A stretch of 64,000 nt of DNA from Verrucomicrobia bacterium UBA1629 (GTDB lineage: Bacteria; Verrucomicrobiota; Kiritimatiellia; RFP12; UBA1067): positions 28,976 through 92,975 of the forward strand of contig DCMF01000098.1 in NCBI GenBank assembly GCA_002321305.1. Direction: 5' to 3'. Positions 12,117 through 54,783 of the stretch are shown one piece after another. Below the pieces are notes generated by a model. The model was not told where the DNA came from, did not search any database, and saw only the letters and a program-made list of their open reading frames with translations. Numbering within the stretch: position 1 is the first letter of the stretch; the number at the start of each line of letters is the position of its first letter. The position numbers and the translations under genes are program-made.

Positions 12117-12117
12117 T

Positions 12118-17472: not shown

Positions 17473-17477
17473 GCCTT

Positions 17478-22470: not shown

Positions 22471-25734
<3,264 letters not shown>

Positions 25735-29003: not shown

Positions 29004-29125
29004 GATGAGATGTGAGAGGTGAGGGATGAGATGTGAGAAGTGAGGGATGAGGGATGGGAGGTGAGAAGTGAGGGATGAGAGGTGGGAGGTGAGAAGTGAG
29101 GGGTGGGAGGTGAGGGATGGGGTGT
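29004..29125. repeat. Family C heptamer minisatellite (GTGAGGG / ATGAGAA / GTGGGAG units), intergenic between rho and coaE.
   Basis: gatgagatgtgagaggtgagggatgagatgtgagaagtgagggatgagggatgggaggtgagaagtgagggatgagaggtgggaggtgagaagtgaggggtgggaggtgagggatgggg. Confidence 0.8.
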
Positions 29126-29805: not shown

Positions 29806-29834
29806 GGCTGGGATACTGTCAGTTCTGCTTTTTC

Positions 29835-30040
29835 AACACAGAGCCGCTTCGCGGGGCGATTGGAGAGATCGTGGGATTCGCTTCGCACCCCTTCGATCTC
29901 GTGATTCGCCCCGCCCATCAATTCTTTTGAATCAGGGGATTTCCTCCGTTTCGCTTCACCCGATACGCAAGAACATTCGCTGAATGCGCGGAGCGAACAT
30001 CCCGCGACACTCACATTGCCCCGCGAAGCGGCTCTGTGTT
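29835..30040. other. 206-bp element bounded by perfect 22-bp inverted repeats (AACACAGAGCCGCTTCGCGGGG / CCCCGCGAAGCGGCTCTGTGTT) in the coaE upstream region. It may be a MITE or a long closed-helix ncRNA.
   Basis: Arms at 29835-29856 and 30019-30040. The interior has partial further complementarity (gatcgtgggattcgc with gcgaacatcccgcgac). No ORF. Confidence 0.35.
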
Positions 30041-30047
30041 AAGCAAA

Positions 30048-30085
30048 ACGCCAAAGGCACAGAGACGTGCATCCCTGTGCCTTTT
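30048..30085. terminator. GC-rich hairpin (AAGGCACAG...CTGTGCCTT) followed by a T-run on plus and by UUUGGCGUUUUGCUU on minus. It may be a bidirectional terminator downstream of the secretin gene.
   Basis: aaaggcacagagacgtgcatccctgtgccttttcttcc. Confidence 0.3.
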
Positions 30086-30124
30086 CTTCCGCGCCGCTGT
30101 GCGTCCACACATCGGCGCGCATCC

Positions 30125-33100
30125 TCACTCCGCCTTGGGGGCGGGCTTGACTTCGGCCTCGTCCACCCGCCCGCTGCTCATCGAAAGCTCGCGGCCAGAC
30201 GGCGTGATCAGGCGGCCCGTCACGAAGATCAGCAGGTTCCGCTTCGTCGTCTTCTCCGCATGGCTGCGGAAGAGGCGGCCGATGAAGGGCAGGTCGCCCA
30301 GGAACGGCACCTTGTCGTCCATCGCCTTGCGCGCCTCGGTGATGAGGCCGCCCATGACGACCGTCGAACCCGGCGTGATCGACACCTTCGAGTCGATCGA
30401 GCGAACATGGAAGAACGGCTGTTCCATCGGCGCGTCATACCACGTCATCGTCGAGGAGGAGGCCGTCGAGACGTTCGCCGCCGCGTCCGTCGCCGACGAG
30501 ACAACCGTCTTGGCCAACGCAGCCGTTTCATTTGGCGTGAGACTCGCGCCAATCGTCGTCAGCGCCGTCGACATGCCCGTGAAGATGTTGCCGATGTCGG
30601 CCATCATGCCCGACGACGTGTTGCCGGAGAACGGGATGCGCATGCCGTAGTTGTGCCAGATCGGCTCGTCGACGACCGCCGGCTTCAGCTCGAGGTCGAT
30701 CGTGCCGCCGTTCGCCTCGGAGTAGGTCGGGATGACGTCGAGGATCACGCCAACCTCACGCATCGTGAAGTTCTGCGGCTCGACGACCGCGAGAATCGCC
30801 GACTGCCCGCCGCCCGATGAGCCGCTGGACGAACCCGACGAACTCGACTGGAGCTGCACGTCGTAGTCCTGCGGATAAATATACTCCGTGACGACCTTGA
30901 TGATGGCCTGTTCGCCCGACTTCGTGACGACCTTCGGGGCCGAGAGAAGATCCGTGTCGCTGCGCTGCGAGAGCATGTGCAGGATCATCGAGAGGTCAGC
31001 CTGGCCAAGGAAGGCGTTCACCCGCAGGAACTGGTCGTTGTTCGACGCCGACTCACCCGAAATGTGGTTGCCGACCGTCGAGAGGTAACGGTTGCCGTTG
31101 CCATAGTCCGACGTGCCGCCAAAGGCGTCCACGCCAACATGGCCTGAACGATCCCCTTTCGCATACTCTCTACTCCAAACATCAGACACAACACCTGACG
31201 ACGTTGTGCGTTTCACAACCTGTCTCGGTCTTAACGTCGTGCCAGCACCCGTTTTGACCTCTTCAAGGACGACTTCATCAAGTACCCCCCCATCCGAGGT
31301 CGTCGATCCATAGCCTGCCCTCTTGAAGCCCAGTGCCTTGCCAAGACCGTCTTTGAGCGCCAGGTTGCTGTTCAGGATCCACTCGAAGCCGAGCGAGTTG
31401 AGGTCTTCCTGCGAGACTTCGACGAAGCGCGTCTCGATCTCGATGAGCTGCGGCTGGCCGCCGAGTTCGTCAAGCACCTTCTCGAACTCCGCGAGGTTTT
31501 CGCGCGTGTTGCGGACATAGAGCTTGCCGAGGGCCTTGATGTGCTTGATCGACGAGCCTTCCGGCCACTTGACGCCCATCTCCTCGAAGAACGCCTTCCA
31601 GTCGCGGCCTTCGCCCTCGCCCTCTTCGTCCGCCGCCTTCTTCGCCTGGCGGTTGGACGCGCCGAAGCCGCCCATCTCCTTCATTTCCTCGGACGCGGAG
31701 TTTACGCGCTCGACGAACGCCTCCGGCACGTTGTACTTGCGCGAGAGAAGCTCGGCGGTCGACATGTCCTTCTGCATGACCATGACGATCGGCCCGCGGA
31801 CGATGAACTTGTAGTCGACCGAGTCGCAGACGAGCTTCAACGCATCGTAGAACGAGATGTCGCTCGCAGTGATCTTCGGAATCGGCGGAAGGCCGTTCGC
31901 CGACGCCTCGGAATCGTCCGACGCATTGGACGAGAAGTCGTCCGACGACTCTTCCTGCGCCGCCTGCTGCTTGATGGCCCCGACCGGGGTGCGCAGCACG
32001 AAGTTGAAGCCGCGCTTCTCGATCGGGATGTCAGGACGGTCATAGTCGCGCGACGCCGTGCGGAAGAACTCGACGGCCTCGATGATCGTCGCCGGCGGCT
32101 TGAACTCGATCGTCGGCAGACGCATCGCGCGCATGCGCTTCTCGATGTCCTGCTCCTGCGTCCGCTCCGGGTCTTCGCCCGCCTGCGCCTTGACGGTCTC
32201 GGACGACGCCTCCGTCAGCTGCGCGGCGTTGACGGCGTAGACGGGCCGCCACGCCTCATCGACGTCGGCAATCATGCCGTCGCGCGCCGCGACACGCTCC
32301 TGCTCCAGAATCGTCTGGCGCTTGCGCTGAATCGCCCTGCGCAGACGAATCGCCTCCTGATTGTACGGATCGGCCTTCAGGACGATTTCGCATTCGTCGA
32401 GCGCGCGCGCCATGTCGCGCAACGCGAAATACTGGCGCGAACGACGCAGATGACGGCGAATCTCCTCGCGGTCAGCCTTGTAGTCGTCGTCGTTGCGGCG
32501 CTGGGACGCCTCCGTGAAATCGGTCTTCGCCTCGTCGACGGTGCTCTGGGCCGTCCACTTCTCCAGCGCACGACGCGCCTTCGGGTGGCGCATCTCCAAC
32601 GCCTTCTCCATCAGCTCGACCGCCCGCGCGCGACGACCGATCTCGTCCTCCTGCAGGGCGGCGCGGTAAAGGCCCTCGGCGATGCCCTGGGCGCACTCCT
32701 TGCGCAGGGCCTTCGACGTGGGGCTGTCGTTCAGCAGCTTTGTCGCGAGGCCATAGTGGCGAACGGCGTCGGTGAACTCCTTCGACTCCATGCTCGCGCG
32801 CGCCGAGAGAATCTCGCGCTTCGCCTGCGCGTCGAGCGAGTCGCGGCGAAGGCGCTCGGTCGTCGCGATGTTCACGAGAAGCTCCTCGTCAGGGCGTTTC
32901 GCGGTGGCGGCCTTTTCGGCCTTCTTCGCCTTCGGATTAGTCGAGGCGACTTCTTCGGCCTCATCAGCCTTTGGCTCAACGGCCTTGTCCGCCGCAGACT
33001 TGGCCGACTCTTCTTCGGCCAGCTGGTCGAGCAGATTCAGCACGTCATCGACTTTCGCGGTTGCGGCCGCTTCGGCCTTCGGCTCATCGGCCTCGTCTGC

Positions 33101-33385
33101 CGCAACCGGTTCAGCCGCCGCTTTCGCCACCGGGGCTTCCGCCGTTGCCGAAGGCTCTTCCGCCGCCGAGGTTTCGGTCTTTGTCTCTTCGGCGGACACC
33201 ACAGGCTCGGCCTCGGCCTTTGCGGTGGGCGCCTCGACCGCCTCCGCCTTTGCGGCGGGCTTCGCGGCCTCGCCCTCAAGATCCTTGAGCAGGTCGTCAA
33301 GGTCGTCTTGCGCCGACACGCTCAACGAGGTAACCGACATCGCCAACGCCGCACTGCACGCGACAATCTTTTTGAAGTTCGTCAT
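30125..33385 (-). CDS. Secretin (PilQ/GspD family), 1086 aa. It has a signal peptide, an Ala/Glu/Lys-rich and TPR-like N-terminal region, and a C-terminal secretin domain.
   Basis: C-terminal VPFLGDLPFIGRLFRSHAEKTTKRNLLIFVTGRLITP is the secretin signature. The signal peptide is MTNFKKIVACSAALAMSVTSLSVSA. Confidence 0.85.
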   Translation of the reverse strand: MTNFKKIVACSAALAMSVTSLSVSAQDDLDDLLKDLEGEAAKPAAKAEAVEAPTAKAEAEPVVSAEETKTETSAAEEPSATAEAPVAKAAAEPVAADEADEPKAEAAATAKVDDVLNLLDQLAEEESAKSAADKAVEPKADEAEEVASTNPKAKKAEKAATAKRPDEELLVNIATTERLRRDSLDAQAKREILSARASMESKEFTDAVRHYGLATKLLNDSPTSKALRKECAQGIAEGLYRAALQEDEIGRRARAVELMEKALEMRHPKARRALEKWTAQSTVDEAKTDFTEASQRRNDDDYKADREEIRRHLRRSRQYFALRDMARALDECEIVLKADPYNQEAIRLRRAIQRKRQTILEQERVAARDGMIADVDEAWRPVYAVNAAQLTEASSETVKAQAGEDPERTQEQDIEKRMRAMRLPTIEFKPPATIIEAVEFFRTASRDYDRPDIPIEKRGFNFVLRTPVGAIKQQAAQEESSDDFSSNASDDSEASANGLPPIPKITASDISFYDALKLVCDSVDYKFIVRGPIVMVMQKDMSTAELLSRKYNVPEAFVERVNSASEEMKEMGGFGASNRQAKKAADEEGEGEGRDWKAFFEEMGVKWPEGSSIKHIKALGKLYVRNTRENLAEFEKVLDELGGQPQLIEIETRFVEVSQEDLNSLGFEWILNSNLALKDGLGKALGFKRAGYGSTTSDGGVLDEVVLEEVKTGAGTTLRPRQVVKRTTSSGVVSDVWSREYAKGDRSGHVGVDAFGGTSDYGNGNRYLSTVGNHISGESASNNDQFLRVNAFLGQADLSMILHMLSQRSDTDLLSAPKVVTKSGEQAIIKVVTEYIYPQDYDVQLQSSSSGSSSGSSGGGQSAILAVVEPQNFTMREVGVILDVIPTYSEANGGTIDLELKPAVVDEPIWHNYGMRIPFSGNTSSGMMADIGNIFTGMSTALTTIGASLTPNETAALAKTVVSSATDAAANVSTASSSTMTWYDAPMEQPFFHVRSIDSKVSITPGSTVVMGGLITEARKAMDDKVPFLGDLPFIGRLFRSHAEKTTKRNLLIFVTGRLITPSGRELSMSSGRVDEAEVKPAPKAE

Positions 33386-33433
33386 TTAAACCACCTATTC
33401 GTTAGTATGGGGAGTAGTATACAATATCTTTTC

Positions 33434-34549
33434 TCACTGTTCAAGGGCTTCAAGTGTCCGGCGCTTGCCCGTGCGGACGTTCTGGAAGGTCACCTTCGCG
33501 CCCTTTCCGGCGGGCACGACCTCGACGACCTTGAACTTTTCGCCGTTCAGATCCAGCTCCGTACCGGGCACGGCCTCGAACGTCGTGACGCTGCCGCGCG
33601 TGTAGTTGAGCGTCGCCATCACGTCCACCGGCTGCGGCTTCGCCCGCTTGTCCTGCACGATCACGAGCGTGACGGTCTTGCCGTCCGCCTTGCGCGCGAC
33701 CGTGACTTCCGAGACGTCATCCGTCACGAACAGGCCCTTCATGCCCTTGCGCGGACGCTTCACCTCTTTTTTCTCGTAGGTCTTGAGGACGAAGCCCGAC
33801 GGGGTCTTCGTGCCCTTGCCGATCTCCTCGCCGAGGACGGCCGAGAGCGTCCGCCCGGCGCGGCCGTAGTCGTCGCGCTGGTTGGGGTCGAAGAACTCGC
33901 ACCGCCAGCCCGACGGGATCTTCGTCGCCTTCGTGAAGACGAACGGCAGGTAGGTCTCCTTGAGCGGCAGGGCGATCTGGATCGAGTCGAGGTAGTCCGG
34001 ATGGTCGCGGCGGTCGGTCGGATCCGTCTTCGCGAGATACTCCTCGAGGTTCGTGAAGCCGTCGCCGTCCTTGTCGGCGTTCGCGTCCGACGGATCGTTC
34101 GGGTTCAGCCCATAGCGCTTCTCCCACTCGTCCGGCATGCCGTCGCCGTCGGAGTCGAGGACGACCTTCTTCTCCACCTCCTGCTTCTCGCCGCAGAAGG
34201 GGCAGTTCGGGAACGCCTTGACGTCGCCGGGAATCACCTTCTGGCACTTCTTGCACTTGACGCGCCGCTCGCTTGCGAGGAACGACGCGCTCGTCCCCGT
34301 CAGCTCGTTCACGACCGTCGGGCTCTTGACGAGCCGGACGGCGCCGGCGTACGCCGTCATGTCCACGGCCGCGACGCCTGTCTCGGACGGCTTCATGCGG
34401 CTGACGGCCTGCGCGGCATTCGCGGCGGCCGTCTCCGGGTCGTCGCCGGCGGAGAGCGCGAAAAAGGCGATTCCGCCCACGAGCGCCAGCACACCGACGC
34501 CGGCGGCGATTCGGTCGTAATAGGCCGCAAAGAAATTCTGGTCTCTCAT
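33434..34549 (-). CDS. Membrane-anchored protein in the PilP/GspC position. It has an N-terminal TM helix, a zinc ribbon (CKKCQ...CPFCGEK), TSP3-like acidic repeats (DSDGDGMPDEWEKRYGLNPNDP, DKDGDGFTNLEEY), and a C-terminal beta domain. Start at MRDQNFF.
   Basis: The true start was found by ATGA overlap with the upstream gene and a GGAGG RBS. The upstream 315 codons of track ORF 33434..35494 are Arg/Gly-rich and out of frame with the real PilO-like gene. Confidence 0.6.
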   Translation of the reverse strand: MRDQNFFAAYYDRIAAGVGVLALVGGIAFFALSAGDDPETAAANAAQAVSRMKPSETGVAAVDMTAYAGAVRLVKSPTVVNELTGTSASFLASERRVKCKKCQKVIPGDVKAFPNCPFCGEKQEVEKKVVLDSDGDGMPDEWEKRYGLNPNDPSDANADKDGDGFTNLEEYLAKTDPTDRRDHPDYLDSIQIALPLKETYLPFVFTKATKIPSGWRCEFFDPNQRDDYGRAGRTLSAVLGEEIGKGTKTPSGFVLKTYEKKEVKRPRKGMKGLFVTDDVSEVTVARKADGKTVTLVIVQDKRAKPQPVDVMATLNYTRGSVTTFEAVPGTELDLNGEKFKVVEVVPAGKGAKVTFQNVRTGKRRTLEALEQ

Positions 34550-35571
34550 TTTCCAACCTCCTCCGTCTTGGCTTCGTCCTCCATTGTCCTGAAATCGTAG
34601 ACGGTCAGGGACAGCGTGACCGTGAACGGCGCATCCAGCGCCGGGTCCGTGACGATGCCGTTCTTCGCCTCGGCCGCGTCCTTCTTCTCCTCGACGACCG
34701 CGCCGCGCCGTCCGCGACGGCCGCGCCCCGACGCCGCGTTCCGCGCCGCCTCGCGCTTGTCGCCGACGCCGAGCGCCTCGGCGACCGGATCGGCCGTGCG
34801 CGCAAAGGTGAAGCCGTCGATGACCATGAACCGCTCGTTCGTGCCGAGCGCGTTCACCGCCTTGACGAACGCCGGCGCGCGCGTCGCGAAGGTGAAGACA
34901 TACGAGAAGGCCGACGGCTGGGAAGCCGCCGCGCCTTCCGCCGCCGGACGCTTCTTCGCCGACGGCTTCTTGCCGCCCTTCTTCGCCTTCTTCTCCTGCG
35001 CGTCGTCCTGTGACGCCGTCGCCTTGAAGTCGACGTTCACGAGTTCGGAGACGCCGCAGGATGCCAGCGTCTCGACGACGAGCATGACGTCGTTCCACCG
35101 GCGCTGCAGCTCCGGCAGCTCGGCGTCCGTCGGCATCTTGCCCTCGGCGATGTAGCTGCGGAACGGGCCGAACGCGAAGTCGGGCTTCACGAGGACGCCG
35201 TTCACCGCGCCCGGCAGCGCCGAAAGGCGCTTCGCGTCCGCGACGAGGTCGGTCTTGAACTGCGCGGGCGTCATCTTGCGGATCGGGTGGTCGCCGCGCG
35301 CGGCCAGCTTCTCGGCCTCCGCGCACCACGCCGTCAGGCGCGCCGCGTTCTCCTCGATCGCCTTGACGCTCGCCGGACAGGGATAGACGCTCTTGCGCGA
35401 GAGCGCCTGGGCTTTCGCCTGGACGGTCTCCAGACCGTCGTTCCCCTCGTCGTCGCCCTCGATGGCCGCGACTTTCGCGGCGTAGGCGCTCCAAGTGAAA
35501 TAGGCCATGGCCAGGACGGCCAAGCCGATCACGCCGCCCGAGACGGCCAGAATCATTCGGTTCTTGTTCAT
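34546..35571 (-). CDS. PilO/GspM-like bitopic membrane protein. It has an N-terminal TM helix, a coiled coil and a Lys-rich linker.
   Basis: MNKNRMILAVSGGVIGLAVLAMAYFTW TM segment. Its position between the PilMN and PilP-like genes and the ATGA overlaps at both ends support the call. Confidence 0.5.
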   Translation of the reverse strand: MNKNRMILAVSGGVIGLAVLAMAYFTWSAYAAKVAAIEGDDEGNDGLETVQAKAQALSRKSVYPCPASVKAIEENAARLTAWCAEAEKLAARGDHPIRKMTPAQFKTDLVADAKRLSALPGAVNGVLVKPDFAFGPFRSYIAEGKMPTDAELPELQRRWNDVMLVVETLASCGVSELVNVDFKATASQDDAQEKKAKKGGKKPSAKKRPAAEGAAASQPSAFSYVFTFATRAPAFVKAVNALGTNERFMVIDGFTFARTADPVAEALGVGDKREAARNAASGRGRRGRRGAVVEEKKDAAEAKNGIVTDPALDAPFTVTLSLTVYDFRTMEDEAKTEEVGK

Positions 35572-37169
35572 TTGAACTTCATCTCCACCGTGAATTGTTC
35601 GACCTGCGCGTCCTTGCCCAGCGCGCTCATGTCCGAAATCTTGACCGTGTCGGCGTCAATGCAGGGCCGCCCCTTGAGCTTGTCGACGACAAGCTCGCCC
35701 GGCGTCTTGCCGCCCTGGCCCTTCACGCGGTCGCTCCAGTAGCGCACCGTCAGGCGCCCGTCGTCCCAGCGCTCGATCCACATGCCGGGCAGCAGGGAGT
35801 CGCGCACCGCGTTGACGCGCTGCGCGGCGGCCGCGCGCGCGACGAGCAGCTTGCGCAGCGACTCGGCCTCGGCCTCGGCGGCCGCGAACTTCTCCGTCGC
35901 CGCCTGGACCTTGCGGTCGGACGCCGTCAGCGTCGCGACCTGCGCCTGCACGGCGTCGCGCTGCGCGGCGACGACCTCCTCCTGACGGCCGATCCCCAGC
36001 ATCACGCAGACGAGCGCCGCGACGAGCGTCACGCCGGCCGCGATGACGAACGGGATCTTGGCCTTCTCGGCCCGCGCCGCGACAAGCGACGGCGGCAGCA
36101 GGTTGATCGCGAAGCGCGCCGCGCCCGCCTCGTGCAGGGCGAGGCCCGCCGTGACGGCGATGAGCGCGCCGTCCGCCTCCAGCGCGGCCGCATCGACCTT
36201 CGGGCCGACGGCCAGCGCCTCGAACGGATTGAAGAACACGACCTCGATCTGGAGCGACTCCTGGAAGAAGACGTCGATCTGCGGCAGGAGGGCCGTGCCG
36301 CCCGTCAGGTAGAGGCGCGTCGGCGCCGTGCCGCCCTGCTGGCTGCGGTAGAAGTTGATCGAGCGCGAGATCTCGGCGTTGAGGCGCGTCATCACCGCGC
36401 GGCAGGCCTTCGAGATCCGGTCGGCGACCTCGTCGTCGTCCTCCGTCACGCCGCCCATCGAGACGTAGCCCTTCTCGCGCTTGAGCTGTTCGGCCTCCTC
36501 GGTCGTGCAGCCGAGCGCGGCGGCGATCTCCTTCGTCACGGCGTTGCCCGCGACGGGGATCGAGCGGTTGTAGATCTTGTCGCCCTCGACGATCACGAGC
36601 GACGTCGTCTTCGAGCCGATGTCGAGGAGGACGCTGCACGAGCCGTCGTCGCCGATCGCGTGGCGCAGGGCGTTCGTGAGCGCGAGCGGCGCGGCGTCGA
36701 CGAGCTCCGGCGTGAAGCCGGCGGCCGCGACGGCCGTCGTCAGCGCCTCGACCTGGTCGACCTTCGCGGCGACGATCATCACCGACTTGTCGCCCGTCTC
36801 CGTGTCGCCCAGCACCTGGCGGTCGCAGACGATCTCGTCGATCGGGAACGGGATGTTCTGCTCGATCTCGTAGCGCACCATCTGCTCGAACTTTTCCGCG
36901 CCGCCCGCCATCGGAATCGCGGCGAAGCGCGGGAAGACCATCTGGCCGGAGATGGCGAGCGCGATCTTGCCGGGGCGGATGCCCTTCGTGCGCACGACCT
37001 CCTGGATCGCGGGCGTGAGGATCGCGCCGGCGTCGCCGCCGTCCAGCGGCGCGGCAAGCGGCGCCGTGCCGTAGTTCACGAGCGTCAGCGCGCCTTTCGC
37101 GCCGGCCTCGTACTCGGCGAGCTCGATGTTGGCCGCGCCGATGTTGAGGGTTAGATATCGTTTAGCCAT
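35568..37169 (-). CDS. PilM-PilN fusion protein. An actin-like PilM ATPase-fold domain is followed by the PilN INLLP motif, a TM helix, a coiled coil and a periplasmic domain.
   Basis: The N-terminus LTLNIGAANIELAEY is PilM/FtsA-like. The internal sequence FAINLLPPSLVAARAEKAKIPFVIAAGVTLVAALVCVMLGIG carries the PilN signature and a TM helix. Confidence 0.8.
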   Translation of the reverse strand: MAKRYLTLNIGAANIELAEYEAGAKGALTLVNYGTAPLAAPLDGGDAGAILTPAIQEVVRTKGIRPGKIALAISGQMVFPRFAAIPMAGGAEKFEQMVRYEIEQNIPFPIDEIVCDRQVLGDTETGDKSVMIVAAKVDQVEALTTAVAAAGFTPELVDAAPLALTNALRHAIGDDGSCSVLLDIGSKTTSLVIVEGDKIYNRSIPVAGNAVTKEIAAALGCTTEEAEQLKREKGYVSMGGVTEDDDEVADRISKACRAVMTRLNAEISRSINFYRSQQGGTAPTRLYLTGGTALLPQIDVFFQESLQIEVVFFNPFEALAVGPKVDAAALEADGALIAVTAGLALHEAGAARFAINLLPPSLVAARAEKAKIPFVIAAGVTLVAALVCVMLGIGRQEEVVAAQRDAVQAQVATLTASDRKVQAATEKFAAAEAEAESLRKLLVARAAAAQRVNAVRDSLLPGMWIERWDDGRLTVRYWSDRVKGQGGKTPGELVVDKLKGRPCIDADTVKISDMSALGKDAQVEQFTVEMKFK

Positions 37170-37185
37170 AGGATTGAAGCCCTTG

Positions 37186-37270
37186 TTCCCGTCTGTCCTC
37201 CGCCTTCTGTCGCCTGTCCTTCGAGACGAGAGCGTTCAGGACAGCGGACAATGGACAAAAGACGAACGGG
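37186..37270. repeat. Family E imperfect palindromic element immediately upstream of the pilMN start. A related copy is at 41696-41780.
   Basis: cccgtctgtcctccgccttctgtcgcctgtccttcgagacgagagcgttcaggacagcggacaatggacaaaagacgaacggg. Confidence 0.6.
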
Positions 37271-37294
37271 GGTGTTCTCTCATTCGATCATTTC

Positions 37295-37999
37295 TTACTG
37301 CATCGTCGTCTCGTAGTCGTTCGGGTTCACGAGCGCCCAGATCGTCTTCGAGCGATCGACGAGGCCCTGACGGCGCTCGACCATCGGCTTGCCGCCCTGC
37401 TGCGCGTTCATGATGTTCTGGTCGTCCCAGAACTGCGAGTCGGCCTTGATGCCCTTGATCTCGCTCACGGTGCCGCCGCCGAGGACGTCGCCGTTCTGGT
37501 TCGACACCGTGAAGCCGATCGCCTTGGGCTCGCCGTAGAGCTCCAGGTAGGACGGCGGCAGGCAGACGCACGCGGCGTGCGAACCCTGCGGGATGTTGTA
37601 GTAGGTCACGGTCGTGTTGAAGTAGCTGTACGGCGGCAGGCCCATCTTGTTGCCCTTGTTCTCCTTCGCGCTCTTCGTCTCCAGCATCACGTGCCAGGTG
37701 AACGTGAGCTGGTCGAGGAACTTCGCGTAGGTCGTGTACTTCGTCTCGATCACGATCCACTTGCGCGGCTTCGTGTAGCAGTTGCCGATCATCGTCGCGC
37801 CCTGGATGGACGGCGCGGGCAGACAGCTCGACTGGCCCGTTTTCGGCATCTGGTCGATGAGGATCTTCGCCTCCTTGCCCGTCGTCACGGGACCGTCCTC
37901 GTTGCCGGCCATCGCCTGGACGCCCTTCTTTGTGCGCGGCGCCGCAACCGCCGCCGCGACCGCCACCATCGCCACCGTCATAACCATCAGCTTCTTCAT
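37295..37999 (-). CDS. Secreted hypothetical protein (signal peptide MKKLMVMTVAMVAVAAAVAA). Function unknown.
   Basis: 234 aa. Start at Met16 of the track ORF, with AAAGGAAC upstream. No recognisable domain. Confidence 0.55.
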   Translation of the reverse strand: MKKLMVMTVAMVAVAAAVAAPRTKKGVQAMAGNEDGPVTTGKEAKILIDQMPKTGQSSCLPAPSIQGATMIGNCYTKPRKWIVIETKYTTYAKFLDQLTFTWHVMLETKSAKENKGNKMGLPPYSYFNTTVTYYNIPQGSHAACVCLPPSYLELYGEPKAIGFTVSNQNGDVLGGGTVSEIKGIKADSQFWDDQNIMNAQQGGKPMVERRQGLVDRSKTIWALVNPNDYETTMQ

Positions 38000-38000
38000 G

Positions 38001-38080
38001 TTCGTGTTCCTTTCTGGTTTTTTGGTTTTCGAATTCAGATTCAAGATTTCAGATTTAAAATTTCAGATCTCTGTTTTATC
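38001..38080. promoter_or_regulatory. AT-rich upstream region of the secreted-protein gene with three direct ATCTGAA(A)T repeats. It is a candidate operator or UP element.
   Basis: Minus strand reads agATCTGAAATtttaaATCTGAAATcttgaATCTGAATtcgaaaaccaaaaaaccagaaaggaacacgaacATG. Confidence 0.3.
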
Positions 38081-38190
38081 AGACGTGAAAGACGAGAGAG
38101 GCGTGAGGGACAGGAGGCCCTTGGCCGCTCGTTGTCGCCTTAGTCTCTTCGCGCTCACGTCTCTCATGTCACTTGTCCCTCATGTCGTTG
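38081..38190. repeat. Family D palindromic element (GGCGTGAGGGACAGG ... CTTGTCCCTCATG), intergenic.
   Basis: gacgagagaggcgtgagggacaggaggcccttggccgctcgttgtcgccttagtctcttcgcgctcacgtctctcatgtcacttgtccctcatg. Confidence 0.7.
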
Positions 38191-38199
38191 AGAATTTTC

Positions 38200-39285
38200 T
38201 CACATCACCTTCATCTTCGGCAGGTCCTGGATGTCCACAAGCCCCACGATGCGGCCTTCCGCGTCGCAGACGGGCAGGTCGTCGATTCGCATCCTCTCGA
38301 AGATCTTCAGCAGCTCCGCCGCGTAGGCGTCGTCATGGACGAACTTGGGCGATTTCGTCATATGCTCGGCGACAGGCGCCGAGAGAATAATCGAATAATC
38401 GAATCGCCGAATCGTCGAATCGGGGGAAGTCTCCGAACCCGACGAAGCCCCCGTCTCTTCATTCATTCGATCATTCGACCATTCGTTCATTCGATTATTT
38501 TCCCGACTCATCACCCGCCGGAAGTCGCCGTCGGTGAAGATGCCGAGAAGCCGGCCCGCCGCATCGGCGACGACCGCCGCGCCGCCCTGCGCCTTCGTCA
38601 TCGCCATCACGGCCTCCATCACCGTCGCCGTCGGCGCGACCTTCGCGAGCCGGTCGCCCGTGCGCATGATGTCCGTCACCTTGAGGACAAGCGCACGGCC
38701 GATCGCGCCGGCCGGATGGTTCGCCGCGTAGTCCGCAAGCGAGAACTTCTGCGCGTCGATCATCACCATCGCGAGCGCGTCGCCCATCGCGAGCGTCGCC
38801 GTGACCGAGTTCGTCGGCGCCATGCCGAAGGGACACGCCTCCTTGCCGCAGGGAATCTCCACGTGCAGGTCGGCGAGCCGCGCGAGCGTCGACTGCGGAT
38901 TGCCCGTCAGCGCAATGACCTTCAGCCCGTGGCGGCGAATCGCCGGGATGAGCCGCACGACTTCCTCGGACTCGCCGCTGAACGAGAGCGCAATCAGCAG
39001 ATCGCGCGACGACACCATGCCGAGGTCGCCGTGCATCGCCTGCACGGGATTGAGGACGATCGAGCGCGTGCCCGTCGAGGCGAAGATCGCGCTCATCTTC
39101 TCCGCGACGTGCAGGTTCTTGCCGACGCCCGTGACGACGACGAGTCCGTCGTTCGCCACGCAGTCCCGCATGAGGCGGATGGCCGAGACGAACGATGCGC
39201 CGAGCGAGTCGCGGGTCTTCTTCAGACCCTCGATCTCGATGTCGAAGACTTGCTTCGCGCGCGTGATCATCTCGGTTTCGGTCAT
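38200..39285 (-). CDS. kdsD: Arabinose-5-phosphate isomerase (KdsD/KpsF type, SIS plus tandem CBS domains). It carries a family B in-frame insertion between the CBS domains.
   Basis: SIS region VVVTGVGKNLHVAEKMSAIFASTGTRSIVLNP...ALSFSGESEEV and CBS pairs. The insert is MSRENNRMNEWSNDRMNEETGASSGSETSPDSTIRRFDYSIILSA. Confidence 0.85.
   Translation of the reverse strand: MTETEMITRAKQVFDIEIEGLKKTRDSLGASFVSAIRLMRDCVANDGLVVVTGVGKNLHVAEKMSAIFASTGTRSIVLNPVQAMHGDLGMVSSRDLLIALSFSGESEEVVRLIPAIRRHGLKVIALTGNPQSTLARLADLHVEIPCGKEACPFGMAPTNSVTATLAMGDALAMVMIDAQKFSLADYAANHPAGAIGRALVLKVTDIMRTGDRLAKVAPTATVMEAVMAMTKAQGGAAVVADAAGRLLGIFTDGDFRRVMSRENNRMNEWSNDRMNEETGASSGSETSPDSTIRRFDYSIILSAPVAEHMTKSPKFVHDDAYAAELLKIFERMRIDDLPVCDAEGRIVGLVDIQDLPKMKVM
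38382..38504. repeat. Family B element in frame in kdsD.
   Basis: gagagaataatcgaataatcgaatcgccgaatcgtcgaatcgggggaagtctccgaacccgacgaagcccccgtctcttcattcattcgatcattcgaccattcgttcattcgattattttcc. Confidence 0.8.
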
Positions 39286-39342
39286 TTCGGTTGGCGATTA
39301 AGAGTTATCGGTTGTTGTCATCTGTTTTTGACTGAAGGGGCG

Positions 39343-39432
39343 TGAGGGACGCGAGAGACAAGAGACCGAACCGTCTCTCATTGTCGCTCTTGTCTCTTTG
39401 TCTCACGTCTCTCATGACTCTCGCGCCCCTTT
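39343..39432. repeat. Family D palindromic element, intergenic between kdsD and pta.
   Basis: aaggggcgtgagggacgcgagagacaagagaccgaaccgtctctcattgtcgctcttgtctctttgtctcacgtctctcatgactctcgcgcccctt. Confidence 0.75.
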
Positions 39433-39440
39433 TGTCAATT

Positions 39441-40478
39441 TTACTTCGTCGTCGACTGCAGCAGCGTCACGCACATCGTGCCGACGATGTCCTCCGCCGA
39501 GCAGCCGCGCGAGAGGTCGTTCATCGCCTTCGCGAGCCCCTGCAGGTTCGGGCCGATCGCGTCCGCCTCGCCGAGGCGCTGCGCGATCTTGTAGCCGATG
39601 TTGCCCGCCTGGAGGTCCGGGAAGATGAAGACGTTCGCATCGCCCTGGATCGCGCCGTCCCGGTTCTTCTGCCGGCCGACCGACGGCACGATGGCCGCGT
39701 CGAACTGCAGTTCGCCGTCCATCCGAATGCCCTTCTCGGCGAAGGCCGGCTTCGCCAGCTCGACCGCCTTCTGCACCTTCTCGACGAGATCGCCGCCGGC
39801 GGAACCCTTCGTGGAGAACGAGAGGTACGCGACCTTCGGCTCGTTCCCCGTCAGGTCCCGGTACGTCTGCGCCGTCGCGAGGCCGATGTCGACGAGCTGT
39901 TCCGCCGTCGGGTTGGGAATGACGGCGCAGTCGCCGAACGCGAGCACGCTGTCGCCCGAGGCCGTCGGCCGCTTGAGGTCGAGGATGAAGCACGAGGAGG
40001 CCGTCTTCACGCCCTTCTGCGTGCCGAGCGTGTGGAACGCCGCACGCAGCATGTCGCCCGTCGAGGCGATGGAGCCGGCGACAAGGCCGTTGACGCGGCC
40101 GAGCTTGACCATCATGCCGCCGAAGTAGATGCGCTTCGTGCGGAGCGTCTTCTGCGCCCCGGCGAGGTCGATGATCTTCTGCTTCTCGGCGGGCTTGCGC
40201 GACTCCTTTGCGTTCCAGGCCGCGAGATAGGCCTCTTCGAGTTCCGCGTCGCCCTGCGTGTAGTCGATGACCCGGATGCTGCGGTCGGCGAGCTTCAGGC
40301 CCGCCTTCGCCTCGGCGTCGGCGATCTCCGCCGCCGTGCCCAGCACGACCGGCGTGCAGATCTGGCGATCGACGACGGCGCAGGCCGCCGTGATGACGCG
40401 CGGGTCGTTTCCCTCGGGCAGAACGACCGTGCCGTTCAGCTTCGAGGCCCTTTCGATAATGTTCTTGATGGCGTTCAT
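39441..40478 (-). CDS. pta: Phosphate acetyltransferase Pta (short form, 345 aa). Start at MNAIKNIIERA.
   Basis: Pta core motifs (IYFGGMMVKLGRVNGLVAGSI, SFSTKGSAGG) are present. The ATG overlaps the ackA TGA stop in an ATGA. The remainder of track ORF 39441..41783 is antisense junk. Confidence 0.9.
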   Translation of the reverse strand: MNAIKNIIERASKLNGTVVLPEGNDPRVITAACAVVDRQICTPVVLGTAAEIADAEAKAGLKLADRSIRVIDYTQGDAELEEAYLAAWNAKESRKPAEKQKIIDLAGAQKTLRTKRIYFGGMMVKLGRVNGLVAGSIASTGDMLRAAFHTLGTQKGVKTASSCFILDLKRPTASGDSVLAFGDCAVIPNPTAEQLVDIGLATAQTYRDLTGNEPKVAYLSFSTKGSAGGDLVEKVQKAVELAKPAFAEKGIRMDGELQFDAAIVPSVGRQKNRDGAIQGDANVFIFPDLQAGNIGYKIAQRLGEADAIGPNLQGLAKAMNDLSRGCSAEDIVGTMCVTLLQSTTK

Positions 40479-41671
40479 TTCTTTCCCCCCAAGACCCTTA
40501 CCGTGTCGCGGGCGATCATCAGCTCCTCGTTCGTCGGGATGACCACGACGGGGATCTTCGAGTCCTTCGTCGAGATGACCTTCAGCTCGCCGCGCACCCT
40601 GTTCGCCGCCTTGTCGAGCTTGATGCCGAGCGCGCCGAGGCGCGCGAGGATGCGCGCGCGCACTTCCGACGAGTTCTCGCCGATGCCGCCGGTCAGGACG
40701 ATGGCGTCCGCCCCGCCGACGATCGTGTTGTAGCCGCCGATGTAGAGCGCGACGCGGTAGGCGAGCATCTCCAGCGCGAGTTCGGCCATCTTGTCGCCCT
40801 TGTCGGCCTTCGCGCAGATGTCGCGGCAGTCGCTCGACCCCGTGAGCGCAAGCAGGCCCGACTTCTTGTTGAGGAGCGTGTCCGCCTGCTCCGGCGTGAG
40901 GTGCTCGGCCTCCATGATCGCGAGGACGGCCGCCGCGTCGATGTTGCCGCAGCGCGTGCCCATCACGAGGCCGGCGAGCGGCGTGAGGCCCATCGTCGTA
41001 TCGACGACCTGGCCGTTCTTGATCGCCGCAAGCGAGCTGCCGTTGCCGAGGTGGCACGTGACGAGGTTCACCTTCGCGAGCGGCTTCTTCAGGAACTTCG
41101 CCGCCGCGAGCGTCACGAACTTGTGGGACGTGCCGTGGAAGCCGTACTTGCGGATGCCGAGCTTCCTGTAGTACTTCGGGTCGATCGCGTACATGCCCGC
41201 GCAGTCCGGCATCGTCGCGATGTGGAAGGCCGTGTCGAAGACGCCGACGTTCGGGACGCCCTTGAAGATCTTCTCGCACGCCTCGATGCCGCCGAGGTTC
41301 GCCGGCATGTGGAGGGGGCCGAACTTCACGAGCTTCCTCGCCTTCGCCATGTTCGCCTTGTCCATGAGCGCCGAGTCCTTGAAGACCTCGCCGCCGTGGA
41401 GGACGCGGTGGCCGATCGCGTCGATGCCAAGCGGGTTGCGAGACGTGAGGCGTGAGTCGTGCGTCGAGACGAGGGCCGGATTCGCCGAGAGCTCGGCGAC
41501 GACCTGCTTCAGGGCCTCGGCGTGATCCTTCGGGCCGCCGCAGCCGATGCGCTCGATGACGCCCTTCGCGAGACGCGTCTCGGTCTTCATGTCGAAGAGC
41601 TGGTACTTGAGCGAGCTGGAGCCCGAATTGATGACGAGAACTTTGCGAATTTCCTTTTTCATCATAGTCAC
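40475..41671 (-). CDS. ackA: Acetate kinase AckA.
   Basis: VLVINSGSSSLKYQLF N-terminus and FHGTSHKFV motifs, 398 aa. Confidence 0.95.
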   Translation of the reverse strand: MTMMKKEIRKVLVINSGSSSLKYQLFDMKTETRLAKGVIERIGCGGPKDHAEALKQVVAELSANPALVSTHDSRLTSRNPLGIDAIGHRVLHGGEVFKDSALMDKANMAKARKLVKFGPLHMPANLGGIEACEKIFKGVPNVGVFDTAFHIATMPDCAGMYAIDPKYYRKLGIRKYGFHGTSHKFVTLAAAKFLKKPLAKVNLVTCHLGNGSSLAAIKNGQVVDTTMGLTPLAGLVMGTRCGNIDAAAVLAIMEAEHLTPEQADTLLNKKSGLLALTGSSDCRDICAKADKGDKMAELALEMLAYRVALYIGGYNTIVGGADAIVLTGGIGENSSEVRARILARLGALGIKLDKAANRVRGELKVISTKDSKIPVVVIPTNEELMIARDTVRVLGGKK

Positions 41672-41695
41672 TTTCGGTTTCAGATTTGTCTTTTC

Positions 41696-41780
41696 CCCGT
41701 CCCGTTTGTCCGCTGTCCTTTGCGCGCCGTCCTTCCTTCGAGAGCCTCGGACAGAGGACAGCCGACAGCGGACAAACAGG
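41696..41780. repeat. Family E palindromic element in the ackA leader, downstream of the giant gene stop.
   Basis: cccgtttgtccgctgtcctttgcgcgccgtccttccttcgagagcctcggacagaggacagccgacagcggacaaacagg. Confidence 0.6.
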
Positions 41781-41845
41781 CATTCATCTCATTCGATTAT
41801 TCAGTCATTCGATTATTCGATTATTCGATCATTCGATTACTGTTC
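41781..41845. repeat. Family B-type single-orientation array (CATTCGATTATTCG units) spanning the 3' end and stop of the giant gene.
   Basis: cattcatctcattcgattattcagtcattcgattattcgattattcgatcattcgattactgttcgatctcgacc. Confidence 0.6.
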
Positions 41846-44800
41846 GATCTCGACCTTGTAGAAGCCGCCGGTCGCCTGGACGTCGGACATCGGAACGCGG
41901 ATGACGCCCGACTTCAGGCTGTCGCCCGAAACCGTCACCGCCTCCGTCGCGACCGTCTGCCATTCGCCCGCAAGCGTCGCGGTGTGCAGCACCTTCACCG
42001 TCACCGTCGAGCCGAGCTTGACGCGGTAGACCCCCGACGCGACCTGTTCCGGCTGCGTGACCGAACCCGCGACCGTCAGCTCGACAGCCCCCGCCGCCGC
42101 GTCGAACGCCATGCCGGAGATGACCAACGTACCGTCCTCGACGGTCGGGTTTTGGCAGAGCTCGCCCGTCGCCGGATCAACCGTCAGGTTCGGCGAAACG
42201 CCCATCGCCAGCGCCGCGAAGGACGCGGACGAGAGGAAGGCGTTCTGGATGCCGCTCGCCAGACCCGCCGTCGGCACGTTCGCGCGGTTGATCTCGTAGA
42301 GCATGTCCCTGACCAGGGTGTTGTCGATGGCGACCTCGCCCGCACCCGACAGGGTCAGGCGATCCACGCCCTTGGCCGTCAGGAACGTGCCGTTCGCGCG
42401 CTGTGCCGCCGTCGCCATCACGTACTCCCAGGCGTCCGGCAGGTTGTCGCCGTCCGTGTCAGCGTCTTCGAGGTAGATCGTCACCGCCTCGCTCGCGCCC
42501 ACGCTGCCGCCGACCGTGACCGCCACCGGGTTGAGGTAGTCGGCCGTCGAGCCGTCACGCTGGCAGAAGTAGCCCATCGACTCCCACTTGTCCCAGACGC
42601 CGTTGCCGTTCGAGTCCACGAACGCCTGCAGGTAGTAGTCGCCCTTCGGGAGCCCGAGGAGGCGGCAGTTGACGCCGCCGTCCGTCACCGTCTTGTCGAC
42701 GAATCCGCCGGAGACCGGCGCACCCGTGAAGTCGGGCGACGTGTAGGCCCGGACGCGGATGAGCGCGTTCGCGTCGTTCGTGACGACCGCCGGCCCGTAG
42801 TAGCGGACGGACGTCTGGATGCTGCCGATGTCGTAGCCGTTCGTCTGCACGCCCATGCGGAACGTGCCGCCCGTGACGAAGCTGTCGTTCTTGAACTTCG
42901 CGTTCGCCGCGGAAATCGACCACGTGTACGCCTTGTTGTTCTCGAAGACGCCCGTCGCGCCCGCCGGACGGTCGCCGACGAACACCGGCGCCGCCCATGT
43001 GTAGACGCCGTCCGCATCCGCCGCCGGCATCCGCAGGTAGTCGCTCGTCCAGCTGAACGCGCCATCCGCGCTCTTGATCATGACCTTGAACGCCGTGTAG
43101 CCGTTGCTGTTGTAGGGCATCCGCCACTGGAACGTCGGCTGACCCAGCTTCACGACGCCGTTGCCGCTGGCAATCGGCTCGGGCAGAAGGCGCTTCGTGT
43201 CGAACCAACGCACCGGCATCACCTTCGACATGTTGCTCGATTCACCAAGGGACGCAACCGATTCGTTTCCAATTACAATGCGGTAGACGACACCGAGTAC
43301 ATCGCCCAACATGTACTGTGAAGCCCCCGTCGAAGACGGAATGCGCCCGTTACTGCCTATCCGACTAATAACATCACCATACAAAGTCTCCCAATCTACA
43401 TCTAACGCGCCCGTCGCCAAGAAGTTAGCCTCGGTAATCCACGGATTCACGCCATCAGAGACTTGCATGTCAAGGATGACGCGATTGCCTCCTGCGCCAA
43501 CATCTTCAGCGAAAACCTCGCCCTGCGTACCGAAGATGATGTGCCGCACGACGCGGATGCGGTTGTAGACGCCGCCGCTCGGCTGGGACGCCGACACGAA
43601 GTTCGTGTAGTTGCCGCTTTCCGTGCCGTAGAGGACCGTGCGATCATCGAGACCCTTGATCGGATCGACGCGCGCAAAGACCGGCGTCGTGTCCGTCAGC
43701 ATGAGCGCGGCCGACGTGCCCTTCCACGAGACGTCCACGCCCGTGACGCAGCCATAGGGCTCGCCCGCCGTGTACGCGCCGTCGCCGTCCAGGTCGGCGA
43801 AGGCGATGATCGTGTTCAGGCCCTCGCGGACGTGGCCCGTGTCGGCCTGACCGAGGTAAAGCTTGCGCGGCAGGCCCACCGCCTCGTTCGCCGAATAGGC
43901 GATACGGAAGGACTGATCCTCCAGCGAGATGTAGTCGCTGTCATTCGTCACGTTGGAGACGTACTGATCCTTGAAGACACCAAGGTTGAGGTCGAATGCA
44001 CCCGTGGTCAAATCGACCGTGCCAAGCACGCGCCCCGACTTGGTGTGAAGCCACTTCGCGGTCTTGCTGCTCTCGTCGCTGCGAACCTCCAGATCCGTCA
44101 GCACGCTGTACTCCGTGCCGCGCGAGAGAAGCTCAACGTTGTTGTCGCCGTACTTGCGCCTGTCGGCGTCATATTCGGCGCGCGTACCGCGCTTGTCCTC
44201 GTACCACACCTTTCCCGTGGCGACGCGGTAGTGGGTGACCGACCAGCTGTACGTCTCGCTCGACGGATCGTAGCAGAACTCAAGCTGCAGGGAGTTCTTG
44301 TTAATGTAGCCCGGCGTCAACGTACCGATCGCGTGGCGATTCGACCACTTGCCAATCGTCCGCGTATAGGCCGTGCCGTCGGCGGTCTGCGACGAGCCGC
44401 TGCCGGAACTGGACGTTCCCGTGCCTGTGCTGCTCGTCTTGCTGACCTTGCCGATGTTGTAGACGGCATCCGCCCCGCGGTTCATGTTCGTGCTCGTGTA
44501 CGTCTGGACGACGAGCGACGCCTTCTCGACCGCATCCTTGCGCGGACCCGCGTAGTTGACGGCGAGTGCAACCGCCGGGATCGGATAGTCCGCCACAAGG
44601 CCATCGGCCGCCGCATAGTGCGACTGCTCATCGGCAACAATCGGCATGCCCTGCTTCGCGTAGCGCGCCTCGCTGCGGTTCGACCAGCCGTCGCCGTCCG
44701 CATCCGCATACGGGTCATAGACGCTGCGCGAGGCATAGCCGTCCGAATAGAGGTCTTCCCAAGCGTCGTCCACAAGGTCGTGGTCAGTGAAGATCTCGCC

Positions 44801-54352: not shown

Positions 54353-54783
54353 TTGGAAATGGGGTCCTTGGGGGTGATGCGCGCACGCACCGTGTTCAGC
54401 GTCGCCTTGCGGCTCGCCTCGACCTTGGCCGTCGCCTCTTCGCACTGACGGCAAAGCTCCTGCCACGCCGGCTCCTTCTCCAGCTCGGCCTTGACCTTCG
54501 CCAGGTCGTCCGTTCCGAGCGCGCGCTTCTTCGCGTCAATCATCGCCTTCATCTGCGAGACGATTTCGCTGCGGGCGCGCAGAAGCCCCTGCCGCGCCTT
54601 GCGGTCGGCCGAGAGCTTCTGGCGAAACGCCGGGTCGTTCATGTAGCTTTCGGGGGCGGACGGATCGACCGTCGCCGCCGCCTTTTCGGACTTGCCGCAC
54701 CCGGCGACAAGCAACAGGCACGCGCCCGCCGCGCACAGCGCGAAAGGCACGAGATTCGGACTCGTACTCGTCTTCAATGTCAT
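54349..54783 (-). CDS. Small lipoprotein with lipobox LLVAGCGK, translationally coupled (ATGA) to the giant gene. Start at MTLKTST.
   Basis: MTLKTSTSPNLVPFALCAAGACLLLVAGCGKSEK..., then a predicted coiled coil. 144 aa. Confidence 0.55.
   Translation of the reverse strand: MTLKTSTSPNLVPFALCAAGACLLLVAGCGKSEKAAATVDPSAPESYMNDPAFRQKLSADRKARQGLLRARSEIVSQMKAMIDAKKRALGTDDLAKVKAELEKEPAWQELCRQCEEATAKVEASRKATLNTVRARITPKDPISK

Follow-up and report, generated by a model that had tools for sequence, protein, structure and literature searches.

Two heptamer-armed palindromes in gene spacers of an uncultured Kiritimatiellia genome: putative copies of a lineage-specific REP-like element

REPs are single stem-loops of 20-40 nt, with a stem of 5-13 bp and a loop of 2-20 nt (PMC3733652, Table 1); they are found after ORFs and sometimes within repair genes, and their transcription is probable (PMC3733652). 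REP/BIME elements are typically present in many copies, carry an unpaired GTAG/CGTC tag and are linked to RAYT (IS200/IS605-type Y1) transposases. Heptamer SSRs, including the cyanobacterial STRR and the units GGGAATC of Xanthomonas and GGGGAYT of Nostoc, are over-represented, intergenic and variable between close relatives, are likely to change by slippage and sometimes form inverted pairs (PMC4692102). The palindromic elements of Rickettsia (RPEs), an obligate intracellular host, comprise several palindrome families that lie both in spacers and in frame in essential genes; they have a CGTC end tag, and their arms are not built from tandem short units (PMC10969869, PMC3733652). The TAACTGA heptamers of Beggiatoaceae are direct repeats without a partner arm that stand on the coding strand, from a few to tens of nucleotides upstream of the start codons of functionally unrelated genes, at hundreds of sites, and have been proposed as single-strand RNA-binding sites (PMC4679880). 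We found no account in the literature of comparable repeats in Kiritimatiellia.

Here, we studied two imperfect palindromes, E1 and E2, in a 64,000-nucleotide stretch of contig DCMF01000098.1 (hereafter the window, meaning this whole stretch), whose relatives are uncultured Kiritimatiellia of rumen and gut. The source contig is also represented by the 93-kb ENA ERZ808281 NODE_34, which is 100% identical to the window. The minus strand carries almost all window genes, and those around the palindromes are co-oriented, in the order giant TSP3/laminin-G protein, ackA, pta, kpsF-like, Amuc_1102-like, pilM-like, Amuc_1100-like, TSP3 protein, secretin, coaE and rho. A preliminary description had reported two related palindromes of ~85 nt, and both are indeed present (Table 1) together with the motifs quoted for them, with two small differences in E2, which reads CGACAGCGGACAA (the first G is C) and ends in ACAGG, not ACGGG.

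Table 1. Coordinates of E1, E2 and the neighboring features in the window
Feature	Position	Strand	Basis and remarks
pilM-like gene (PilM_2/FtsA domains)	35568..37169	minus	Pfam; second gene of an Akkermansia-type Amuc_1102/1100 pilus cluster
E1-to-pilM-ATG stretch, 16 nt	37170..37185	minus	AAGGG Shine-Dalgarno-like motif; conserved in L205-L208 (direct reading)
E1 imperfect palindrome	37186..37270	minus	spacer between Amuc_1102-like gene and pilM; orthologues in L205-L208
TCGAATGAGA motif, E1 5' flank	37278..37287	minus	one repeat of the 8-mer AATCGAAT family; 5' boundary of what was duplicated with E1
Amuc_1102-family gene	37295..38044	minus	directly upstream of E1; 1-nt overlap with pilM in 10/36 relatives
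ackA (acetate kinase), then pta	40475..41662	minus	Pfam; exact product on record
Ancestral ackA spacer, kept downstream of E2	41663..41695	minus	homologous to the whole 26-nt L215 spacer
E2 imperfect palindrome	41696..41780	minus	spacer between giant-protein gene and ackA; better-preserved paralogue of E1
TCGAATGAGA motif, E2 5' flank	41787..41796	minus	relative distance as at E1
Tandem 8-mer array AATCGAAT, ~6 units	41791..41839	minus	starts on the giant-protein stop codon and abuts E2; TRF
Giant protein (TSP3/laminin-G)	41837-54466	minus	upstream of ackA

The two palindromes are related by descent. They align with 70% identity over 107 nt (blastn, E = 0.002/0.006) and are reciprocal best matches within the window, and their loop cores are homologous (GCTCTCG..TCGAAGGA; GCTCTCG[TCTCG]AAGGA vs GCTCTCGAAGGAAGGA), that of E1 being GCTCTCGTCTCGAAGGA. 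The 10-mer TCGAATGAGA has two exact matches in the 64-kb window, where 0.15 would be expected, each lying 7-8 nt 5' of an E copy, and GGACANNGGACA, allowing up to one mismatch, has nine matches where 3.8 would be expected, seven of them inside E1 or E2. Because they share a loop core that is not repetitive, and a flank as well, E1 and E2 are copies of one element, not independent arrays. The word conserved in the preliminary description overstates a similarity that is real and modest (70% identity over 107 nt). A CM built from E1 and E2 scores them at 105.8 and 108.5 bits, respectively, and recovers these two copies only in 1.28 Mb (the window plus 80 related loci); another 6.4 kb of the source contig gave no match. 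Orthologues of both copies were found in a single sub-lineage (L205-L208), and since ~70 kb of this genome holds two copies only, the term dispersed family is an extrapolation from the sister families described below.

The preliminary description placed both copies in the 5' leaders of pilMN and ackA, 17-25 nt from a start codon. They do lie upstream of both genes, in intercistronic spacers of co-directional genes rather than in operon leaders: E1 sits inside the Amuc_1102-pilM operon, between the first and second genes of the pilus cluster, and not at the operon start. We measured 16 nt from the end of E1 to the pilM ATG (37169); from the end of E2 the distance is 24 nt to an upstream GTG (41671) and 33 nt to the ackA ATG (41662), the start that is backed by homologues and by the public gene call. 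No in-frame ATG, GTG or TTG occurs between the upstream stop and the called start of either pilM or ackA, which places both E copies outside coding sequence.

Both arms of E are short tandem heptamer arrays of the form GGACAGN, with a GGACA/TGTCC core and two variable positions. The 3' arm of E2 has four GGACAGN units (TRF 41748-41774: period 7, 3.9 copies, 80% matches) and its outer stem is a perfect 17 bp; the arms of E1 are degenerate tandem heptamers (TGTCCNN / NNGGACA) that retain the 7-nt register, and its 5-bp helices are parted by 2x2 internal loops. Since the arms are heptamer arrays, the hairpin is a ladder of 5-bp helices, ~85 nt in size, with 26-27 pairs in four helices and 2x2 or 3x3 internal loops between them. 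The predicted RNA fold of the minus (coding) strand reaches -45.0 kcal/mol for E1 (z = -2.05, 7/200 shuffles equally good) and -53.8 kcal/mol for E2 (z = -4.41, 0/200 shuffles equally good). Each of the seven distinct E sequences folds more stably in sense than in antisense, and the consensus structure has an energy of -39 kcal/mol in sense vs -15 kcal/mol in antisense. These values, and orthologue stem substitutions that mostly keep sense pairing, fit the earlier prediction of a coding-strand hairpin, which would be transcribed with the neighboring genes. The folds do not sequester the start codons or the Shine-Dalgarno-like motif. Scans found neither a terminator-like site nor a promoter at E1 or E2, and the 3' flanks, GGGAACAAGG and GGGACGGGGA, are without a U tract. 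Rfam gave 0 matches in the window at gathering thresholds and, in a permissive scan, just animal miRNA-precursor hairpins, far below threshold.

Closely related strains (members of the 90% PilM cluster and their contigs, L205-L217) constrain the history of both sites. Orthologues of E1 and E2 are both present in L205-L208 (47-96 bits), which diverge from the window by ~0.08-0.10 at 4-fold sites, and neither copy was found in L209-L217. Assembly GCA_964322345.1 represents a relative that carries E. Several of the strains that lack E have a 91-98% identical PilM, and among them are the closest relatives of the window, L215 and L216 (4-fold divergence 0.035-0.05). The pilM site of L215 and L216 is occupied by a 201-nt 8-mer palindrome unrelated to E, and that of L212 and L213 also by an 8-mer palindrome; L209-L211 have a 36-nt pilM spacer without a hairpin, and an unrelated 215-nt hairpin before ackA. 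E took the place of an older 8-mer palindrome at the pilM site. For the ackA site, which the sequence of L216 stops short of, L215 provides an empty allele: its spacer of 26 nt (TAA-AAAACAGAAGGTTCGAAAGTTAGAAG-ATG) has nothing inserted and is homologous to window positions 41672-41700. This empty site implies that the 8-mer array and E2 entered immediately behind the stop codon of the upstream gene. What separates E2 from the start codon is then no more than the short ancestral spacer, which stayed on the downstream side of the insertion, and this accounts for the fixed position that had earlier been taken as a sign of regulation. No target-site duplication was seen at the junctions when the occupied site of the window was set against the empty one of L215. 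Overall, within one recent sub-lineage, an E unit consisting of an 8-mer stub and then the hairpin was inserted beside the upstream stop codon of two conserved gene strings.

At every locus that spans both sites, the E copies are either both present (window, L205-L208) or both absent (L209-L211, L215). The presence of E cuts across relatedness at 4-fold sites, and the window PilM is itself a mosaic, with an N-terminus like that of the E-bearing group and the rest like that of the L215 group. From these two observations we infer that E alleles pass between strains through homologous recombination.

More distant relatives show how the two spacers look elsewhere. The gene string (giant-ackA-pta-kpsF-Amuc_1102-pilM) is conserved in ~36 species-level genomes, in which the spacer between Amuc_1102 (hyp249) and pilM is at most 40 nt in 28 of the 36 syntenic loci, with a 1-nt gene overlap in 10, and the giant-ackA spacer is mostly 0-70 nt. 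Both spacers are ancestrally short, and in most Kiritimatiellia relatives they measure about 0-60 nt. E has left no trace at either site in 79 of 80 species-level loci (the heptamer pattern gave 1 chance match and the CM none), which, together with its absence from strains with nearly the same PilM, speaks against the gene-specific cis-regulatory structure previously suggested. Where spacers at the E sites are long in other lineages, they hold other short-unit palindromes. L001 has one of 8-mers there and L005 one of 9-mers; L011 has an AT-rich 7-mer, L040 GCAAAGRAC 9-mers and L012 GTGGTTC 7-mers. The 8-mer array AATCGAAT before ackA is also found in L001 and L002.

E is one of several 7/8/9-nt families that colonized the spacers of this genome, and other families also colonized permissive protein loops. 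At least 13 short-unit arrays or palindromes occur in the window, and the sister families are an 8-mer AATCGAAT, two 9-mers (GAGGGACGN and GGAGGTTTG) and a 7-mer TGAGGGR, with an end motif that differs by family (e.g., GGAAATAATCGAAT...ATTCGATTATTTCC and TTGACT...AGTCAA). UvrA contains four in-frame arrays, at which its alignment to PDB 2r6f breaks (residues 145-183, 279-327, 526-577 and 714-764); KpsF has one in its CBS linker, CoaE has one, IF-2 has one in the N-terminal region, and MurC has two in-frame arms around 150 nt of conserved coding sequence. The RecA leader also holds a sister-family element. One CoaE loop harbors five families in five lineages and is empty in others. Array density among relatives is patchy: some loci reach 2-5 per 10 kb, and many have 0. 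In the region upstream of the window, strain L203 shows no difference and L204 matches at 99.66%, the arrays being free of indels, and hence there is no sign of hypervariability on that timescale. The strand preference of the fold is also specific to the family, the 9-mer families folding better as antisense, so the pooled GU:AC ratio over all window palindromes (32:26, no bias) is uninformative.

Several explanations for these arrays were set aside. Assembly artefact was rejected on finding the same element types in independent assemblies and in frame in genes, a CRISPR-like array on the lack of unique spacers of regular size, and a reading of the in-frame copies as inteins, introns or intervening sequences on the lack of such motifs, the low complexity and the open frame that is kept. 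A group of metagenome loci with a common flank (L104/L108/L116/L154) was dropped, L108 being a 6.6-kb inverted duplication. Hairpins of the pattern (TTGTCCN)n...(NGGACAA)n were found at 120 or more metagenome loci, from very diverse organisms with GC of 0.39-0.70; among the metagenome matches listed there was no E homologue.

Within E itself, arm length changes by whole-unit slippage: E1 has one GCTGTCC unit more in L206 and L207 than in L205 and L208, the 8-mer array that precedes E2 counts 6 units in the window and 4 in L205-L208 and is absent in L215, and indels of 7 nt and 16 nt separate strains in the E region. The primary sequence is not conserved, evolving at or above the 4-fold rate (window vs L206, 14-18% different vs ~10% at 4-fold sites). 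Pairing shows a different pattern. Across the seven distinct E sequences 96.2% of cells are paired, all six stem changes in E2 between the window and L206 are exchanges between WC and G·U pairs, and of the 54 stem positions 12 differ between the paralogues E1 and E2, each time with the pair preserved, as against 30 of 44 non-stem positions. These figures suggest maintenance of a hairpin at the RNA level. We word this as a suggestion because pairs with changes on both sides number only two, shuffle controls of 8/500 and 5/500 are inside the range reported for unconstrained trees, E1 has three broken pairs in L205 and L206, and the 4-fold sites reveal a strand bias (on the sense strand, C>T 99 vs G>A 29; GU-making 100 vs AC-making 45) that by itself favors G·U over A·C. 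Given that bias, the GU:AC excess in stem transitions is borderline (p ~0.05-0.09, our own arithmetic).

How, then, does E compare with the described systems? The fallback reading of the preliminary description, a REP/ERIC-like element, fits E as a REP-like dispersed palindrome. Like REP/BIME, both copies are imperfect palindromes just after an ORF, in spacers of co-directional genes, and probably enter transcripts as RNA hairpins; species and strains differ patchily in abundance, and kin of the element type lie inside genes, notably those for repair (here UvrA and the RecA leader). Unlike REP/BIME, E spans ~85 nt, folds into four helices of ~27 pairs in all, has arms of tandem heptamers and is without an unpaired GTAG/CGTC tag: there is no GTAG, the CGTC of E1 is in the stem, and E2 has TGTC there. 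Two copies were seen in ~70 kb of source contig, and no transposase or RAYT among the window genes of this incomplete genome. With the heptamer SSRs, E shares an intergenic 7-nt unit in at least three tandem copies and whole-unit polymorphism that makes slippage likely; it departs from them in that its arrays regularly form an inverted pair around a short loop and in that its unit forms no G-quadruplex. The window 8-mer and 9-mer families recall the RPEs in being several palindrome families placed in spacers and in frame in essential genes, whereas the E copies are solely intergenic, and the host here is a free-living gut/rumen anaerobe. The TAACTGA repeats resemble E in position and coding-strand orientation and lack its paired arms. 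A MITE is not indicated, with no target-site duplication and no related IS in the window; nor is an intrinsic terminator, the stem-loop being without a U tract, or a cis-regulatory RNA, with no Rfam match and no conservation upstream of orthologues across species.

We therefore consider it somewhat probable that E1 and E2 are paralogues of one young REP-like dispersed palindrome, specific to this lineage and armed with SSRs, whose role in mRNA is generic at most. If E were instead selfish or neutral DNA, a decaying or expanding SSR palindrome without any RNA role, the sense G·U excess would reflect strand-biased mutation (C>T and A>G on the coding/leading strand) and recent origin. We think this rather unlikely, although much agrees with it: the C>T bias at 4-fold sites, against which the GU:AC excess is borderline, the substitution rate of E relative to those sites and the partly broken E1 of L205 and L206, the family-specific strand bias (antisense in the 9-mers, and 32:26 when pooled), and the fact that close relatives do without E. 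Against it count the contrast between paralogues, which differ at 68% of non-stem vs 22% of stem positions with all 12 stem changes keeping pairs, the more stable sense fold in 7/7 sequences, and the small number of stem transversions. A DNA-level element is a further reading, very improbable in our judgment, under which E would provide iterated protein-binding sites, or form a cruciform or ssDNA hairpin on one of the replication strands. It might then be a hotspot of recombination, be acted on by an HUH/Y1 transposase, or serve as a supercoiling or nucleoid site of the kind proposed for BIMEs. The regular 7-nt spacing, with a conserved GGACA core and variable NN, would suit such a role, DNA hairpins also tolerate G·T wobbles, heptamer hairpins of the GGACA type are spread over highly diverse metagenome contigs, and, since all genes are co-oriented, the sense strand is inseparable from one replication strand. 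Yet no candidate protein or transposase was found nearby, and a 7-nt spacing would put successive sites on different faces of B-DNA.

The remaining reading, a gene-specific cis-regulatory leader (attenuator, thermosensor or regulator site) that co-regulates the pilus cluster and acetate kinase, seems to us very improbable as well. It would account for the coding-strand orientation of both copies at distances of 16 and 33 nt from start codons, for their joint presence or absence at all loci spanning both sites, and for the maintained sense-strand pairing. However, the ancestral spacer suffices to explain how far E lies from the start codon, the closest relative and all species-level relatives lack E and have unrelated palindromes or nothing instead, E1 is inside the Amuc_1102-pilM operon and not at its start, and E has no U tract, alternative-pairing logic or Rfam match and leaves the start codon and Shine-Dalgarno-like motif free. 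Against the attenuator, offered earlier as an example, also count the absence of a promoter and the sister families, which lie in frame in essential genes, where an attenuator would do harm: such copies make a terminator or attenuator role hard to reconcile with the class as a whole, and a specific attenuator of pilM or ackA is not the likely function of E.

Returning to the REP-like reading, both sites are in co-directional gene strings, so E would be transcribed within polycistronic mRNA, where it is predicted to fold on the sense strand into an interrupted hairpin of ~27 pairs. By analogy with REP/BIME, any effect of that hairpin would be generic, as a barrier to 3' exonucleases or a site for double-strand-specific nucleases, and it could uncouple the stability of neighboring cistrons. 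E probably spread by recombination through the flanking 8-mer arrays or by means of some transposase. The ingredients are known separately in the literature; E combines them as an SSR-armed palindrome.

A wider idea, which we regard as unlikely, is that E and its sister families together form an undescribed bacterial "foldback" class, defined by short-tandem-repeat arms and one terminal motif per family. The inverted arms of Drosophila Foldback (FB) transposons reportedly consist of short tandem repeats as well; those elements are eukaryotic, kilobase-sized and have a known transposase partner, and their likeness to E is purely architectural. Such a class may turn over fast in some gut/rumen Kiritimatiellia, with repeated reuse of the same spacers and surface loops (UvrA, KpsF, CoaE, MurC, IF-2), and its hairpins may be retained in a family-specific strand orientation. 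If true, this would imply a new mobilization or expansion mechanism, or a selected role for the hairpins at the RNA or ssDNA level.

For annotation, the lesson is that in these genomes a long, strongly folding hairpin shortly before a start codon calls for comparative checks before it is taken for a riboswitch or attenuator; here, the fixed position is a by-product of very short ancestral spacers. The genome-wide array phenomenon is a more interesting lead than E itself: a bacterial lineage in which 7-9-nt SSRs are organized as palindromes, spread as families and are swapped between strains, and in which palindromes are tolerated in frame in core repair, translation and cell-wall genes. It extends the REP/RPE picture to an uncultured PVC-group clade of gut and rumen, and offers a natural system for studying the origin of hairpin repeats and translation through them. 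If the sense-hairpin constraint is real, elements such as E would give these bacteria a cheap, evolvable means of tuning the relative stability of cistrons in operons.

The PilM of the window is a recombinant. Its N-terminus (MAKRYLTL) is as in the group of close relatives that bear E, the palindromic repeat family with heptamer arms, and beyond the N-terminus just 11 residues differ from the group lacking E. The tree built from fourfold-degenerate sites and the presence of E disagree. Comparison of such sites on the coding strand between 28500-44200 and the corresponding regions of five close relatives (E-bearing L205-L207 and E-less L209 and L215) revealed a strong strand asymmetry, with 99 C>T against 29 G>A changes; transversions, mostly C<->G, made up 60% of substitutions, and G+C at these sites is ~97%. 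Fold stability, compared for both strands of the window palindromes and of spacers from six related loci (L001, L005, L012, L209, L212, and L215), has a strand bias that is family-specific: sense RNA is the more stable fold for E and for the family of 8-nt units (by 5-18 kcal/mol), and antisense for both families of 9-nt units (by 3-15 kcal/mol).

Short-unit arrays or palindromes occur in or beside several housekeeping genes (table below). UvrA contains four in-frame insertions of 39-52 residues, every one a palindromic array, and these coincide exactly with the breaks in the alignment to a solved UvrA (2r6f). The inverted arms are not contiguous in MurC or in CoaE: between them lies native coding sequence, 150 nt in the former and 76 nt in the latter. 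The source contig (L202) carries eight copies of the heptamer CCCCTCA (16621-16691 of that contig), some 2 kb upstream of where the window begins, inside an unannotated gene of 939 residues, apparently a further in-frame array.

Repeat arrays, palindromes, and associated genes (window positions unless a related locus is named)
Feature	Position	Strand	Remark
MurC array/palindrome	5339-5604		short-unit; within or at edge of gene
IF-2 N-terminal region array/palindrome	8340-8440		short-unit
recA start array/palindrome	17425-17479		short-unit
uvrA gene	22471-25734	-	four in-frame insertions
UvrA arrays	23446-23600, 24060-24150, 24741-24903, 25186-25250	-	palindromic, 8-nt or 9-nt units
AT-rich 13-mer repeats	25857-25961		uvrA/HEAT-repeat gene spacer
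Long GC-rich palindrome	about 25982-26211		uvrA/HEAT-repeat gene spacer
19/26/45-nt repeats	26222-26368		uvrA/HEAT-repeat gene spacer
rho leader array/palindrome	29006-29114		short-unit
CoaE array/palindrome (CoaE loop)	29397-29574		short-unit; within or at edge of gene
CoaE loop, L001	19356-20006
CoaE loop, L006	11281-11910
CoaE loop, L008	18940-19524
CoaE loop, L011	11052-11654
pilM	35568-37169		compared with PilM cluster members P0002-P0016
KpsF array/palindrome	38380-38505		short-unit; within or at edge of gene

A HEAT-repeat gene and uvrA are separated by 780 nt of non-coding DNA (25735-26513), which gave no Rfam match. In the spacer between coaE and the secretin gene, near-perfect 28-nt inverted repeats (TTAACACAGAGCCGCTTCGCGGGGCAAT and its complement; 29833-30042) lie 154 nt apart; the pair looks MITE-like. 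Between RNase HII and htpG, on the minus strand (10902-13047), lies a type II restriction-modification pair in which a C-5 cytosine methyltransferase is partnered by a restriction endonuclease of the XamI family.

Among the matches listed, metagenome contigs (L081-L200) from many environments, with GC of 0.39-0.70, commonly contain hairpins that have heptamer arrays, (TTGTCCN)n / (NGGACAA)n, as their arms; some of these hairpins are adjoined by TTGGTCA-type (cyanobacterial STRR-like) arrays. One entire metagenome contig (L108, 1-6601) is a near-perfect inverted duplication, its arms 78-98% complementary over 6.6 kb; it may be a genuine large palindrome or have arisen in assembly as an artefact. 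Three related loci that carry the complete Kiritimatiellia gene string (L004, L009, and L028) have the record titles Alistipes onderdonkii, Anaerovoracaceae bacterium, and Methanomethylophilaceae archaeon, respectively; these contigs were probably mis-binned into those MAGs.

In CoaE, palindromic arrays occupy one and the same protein loop in five lineages (the window, L001, L006, L008, and L011) and belong to five different repeat families; in five other related loci (L002, L003, L004, L016, and L020) the loop is without a palindromic array. The linker of the KpsF CBS domains follows the same pattern. Such differences in family at the two sites could reflect permissive positions that have been recolonised repeatedly, or turnover of the repeats in place.
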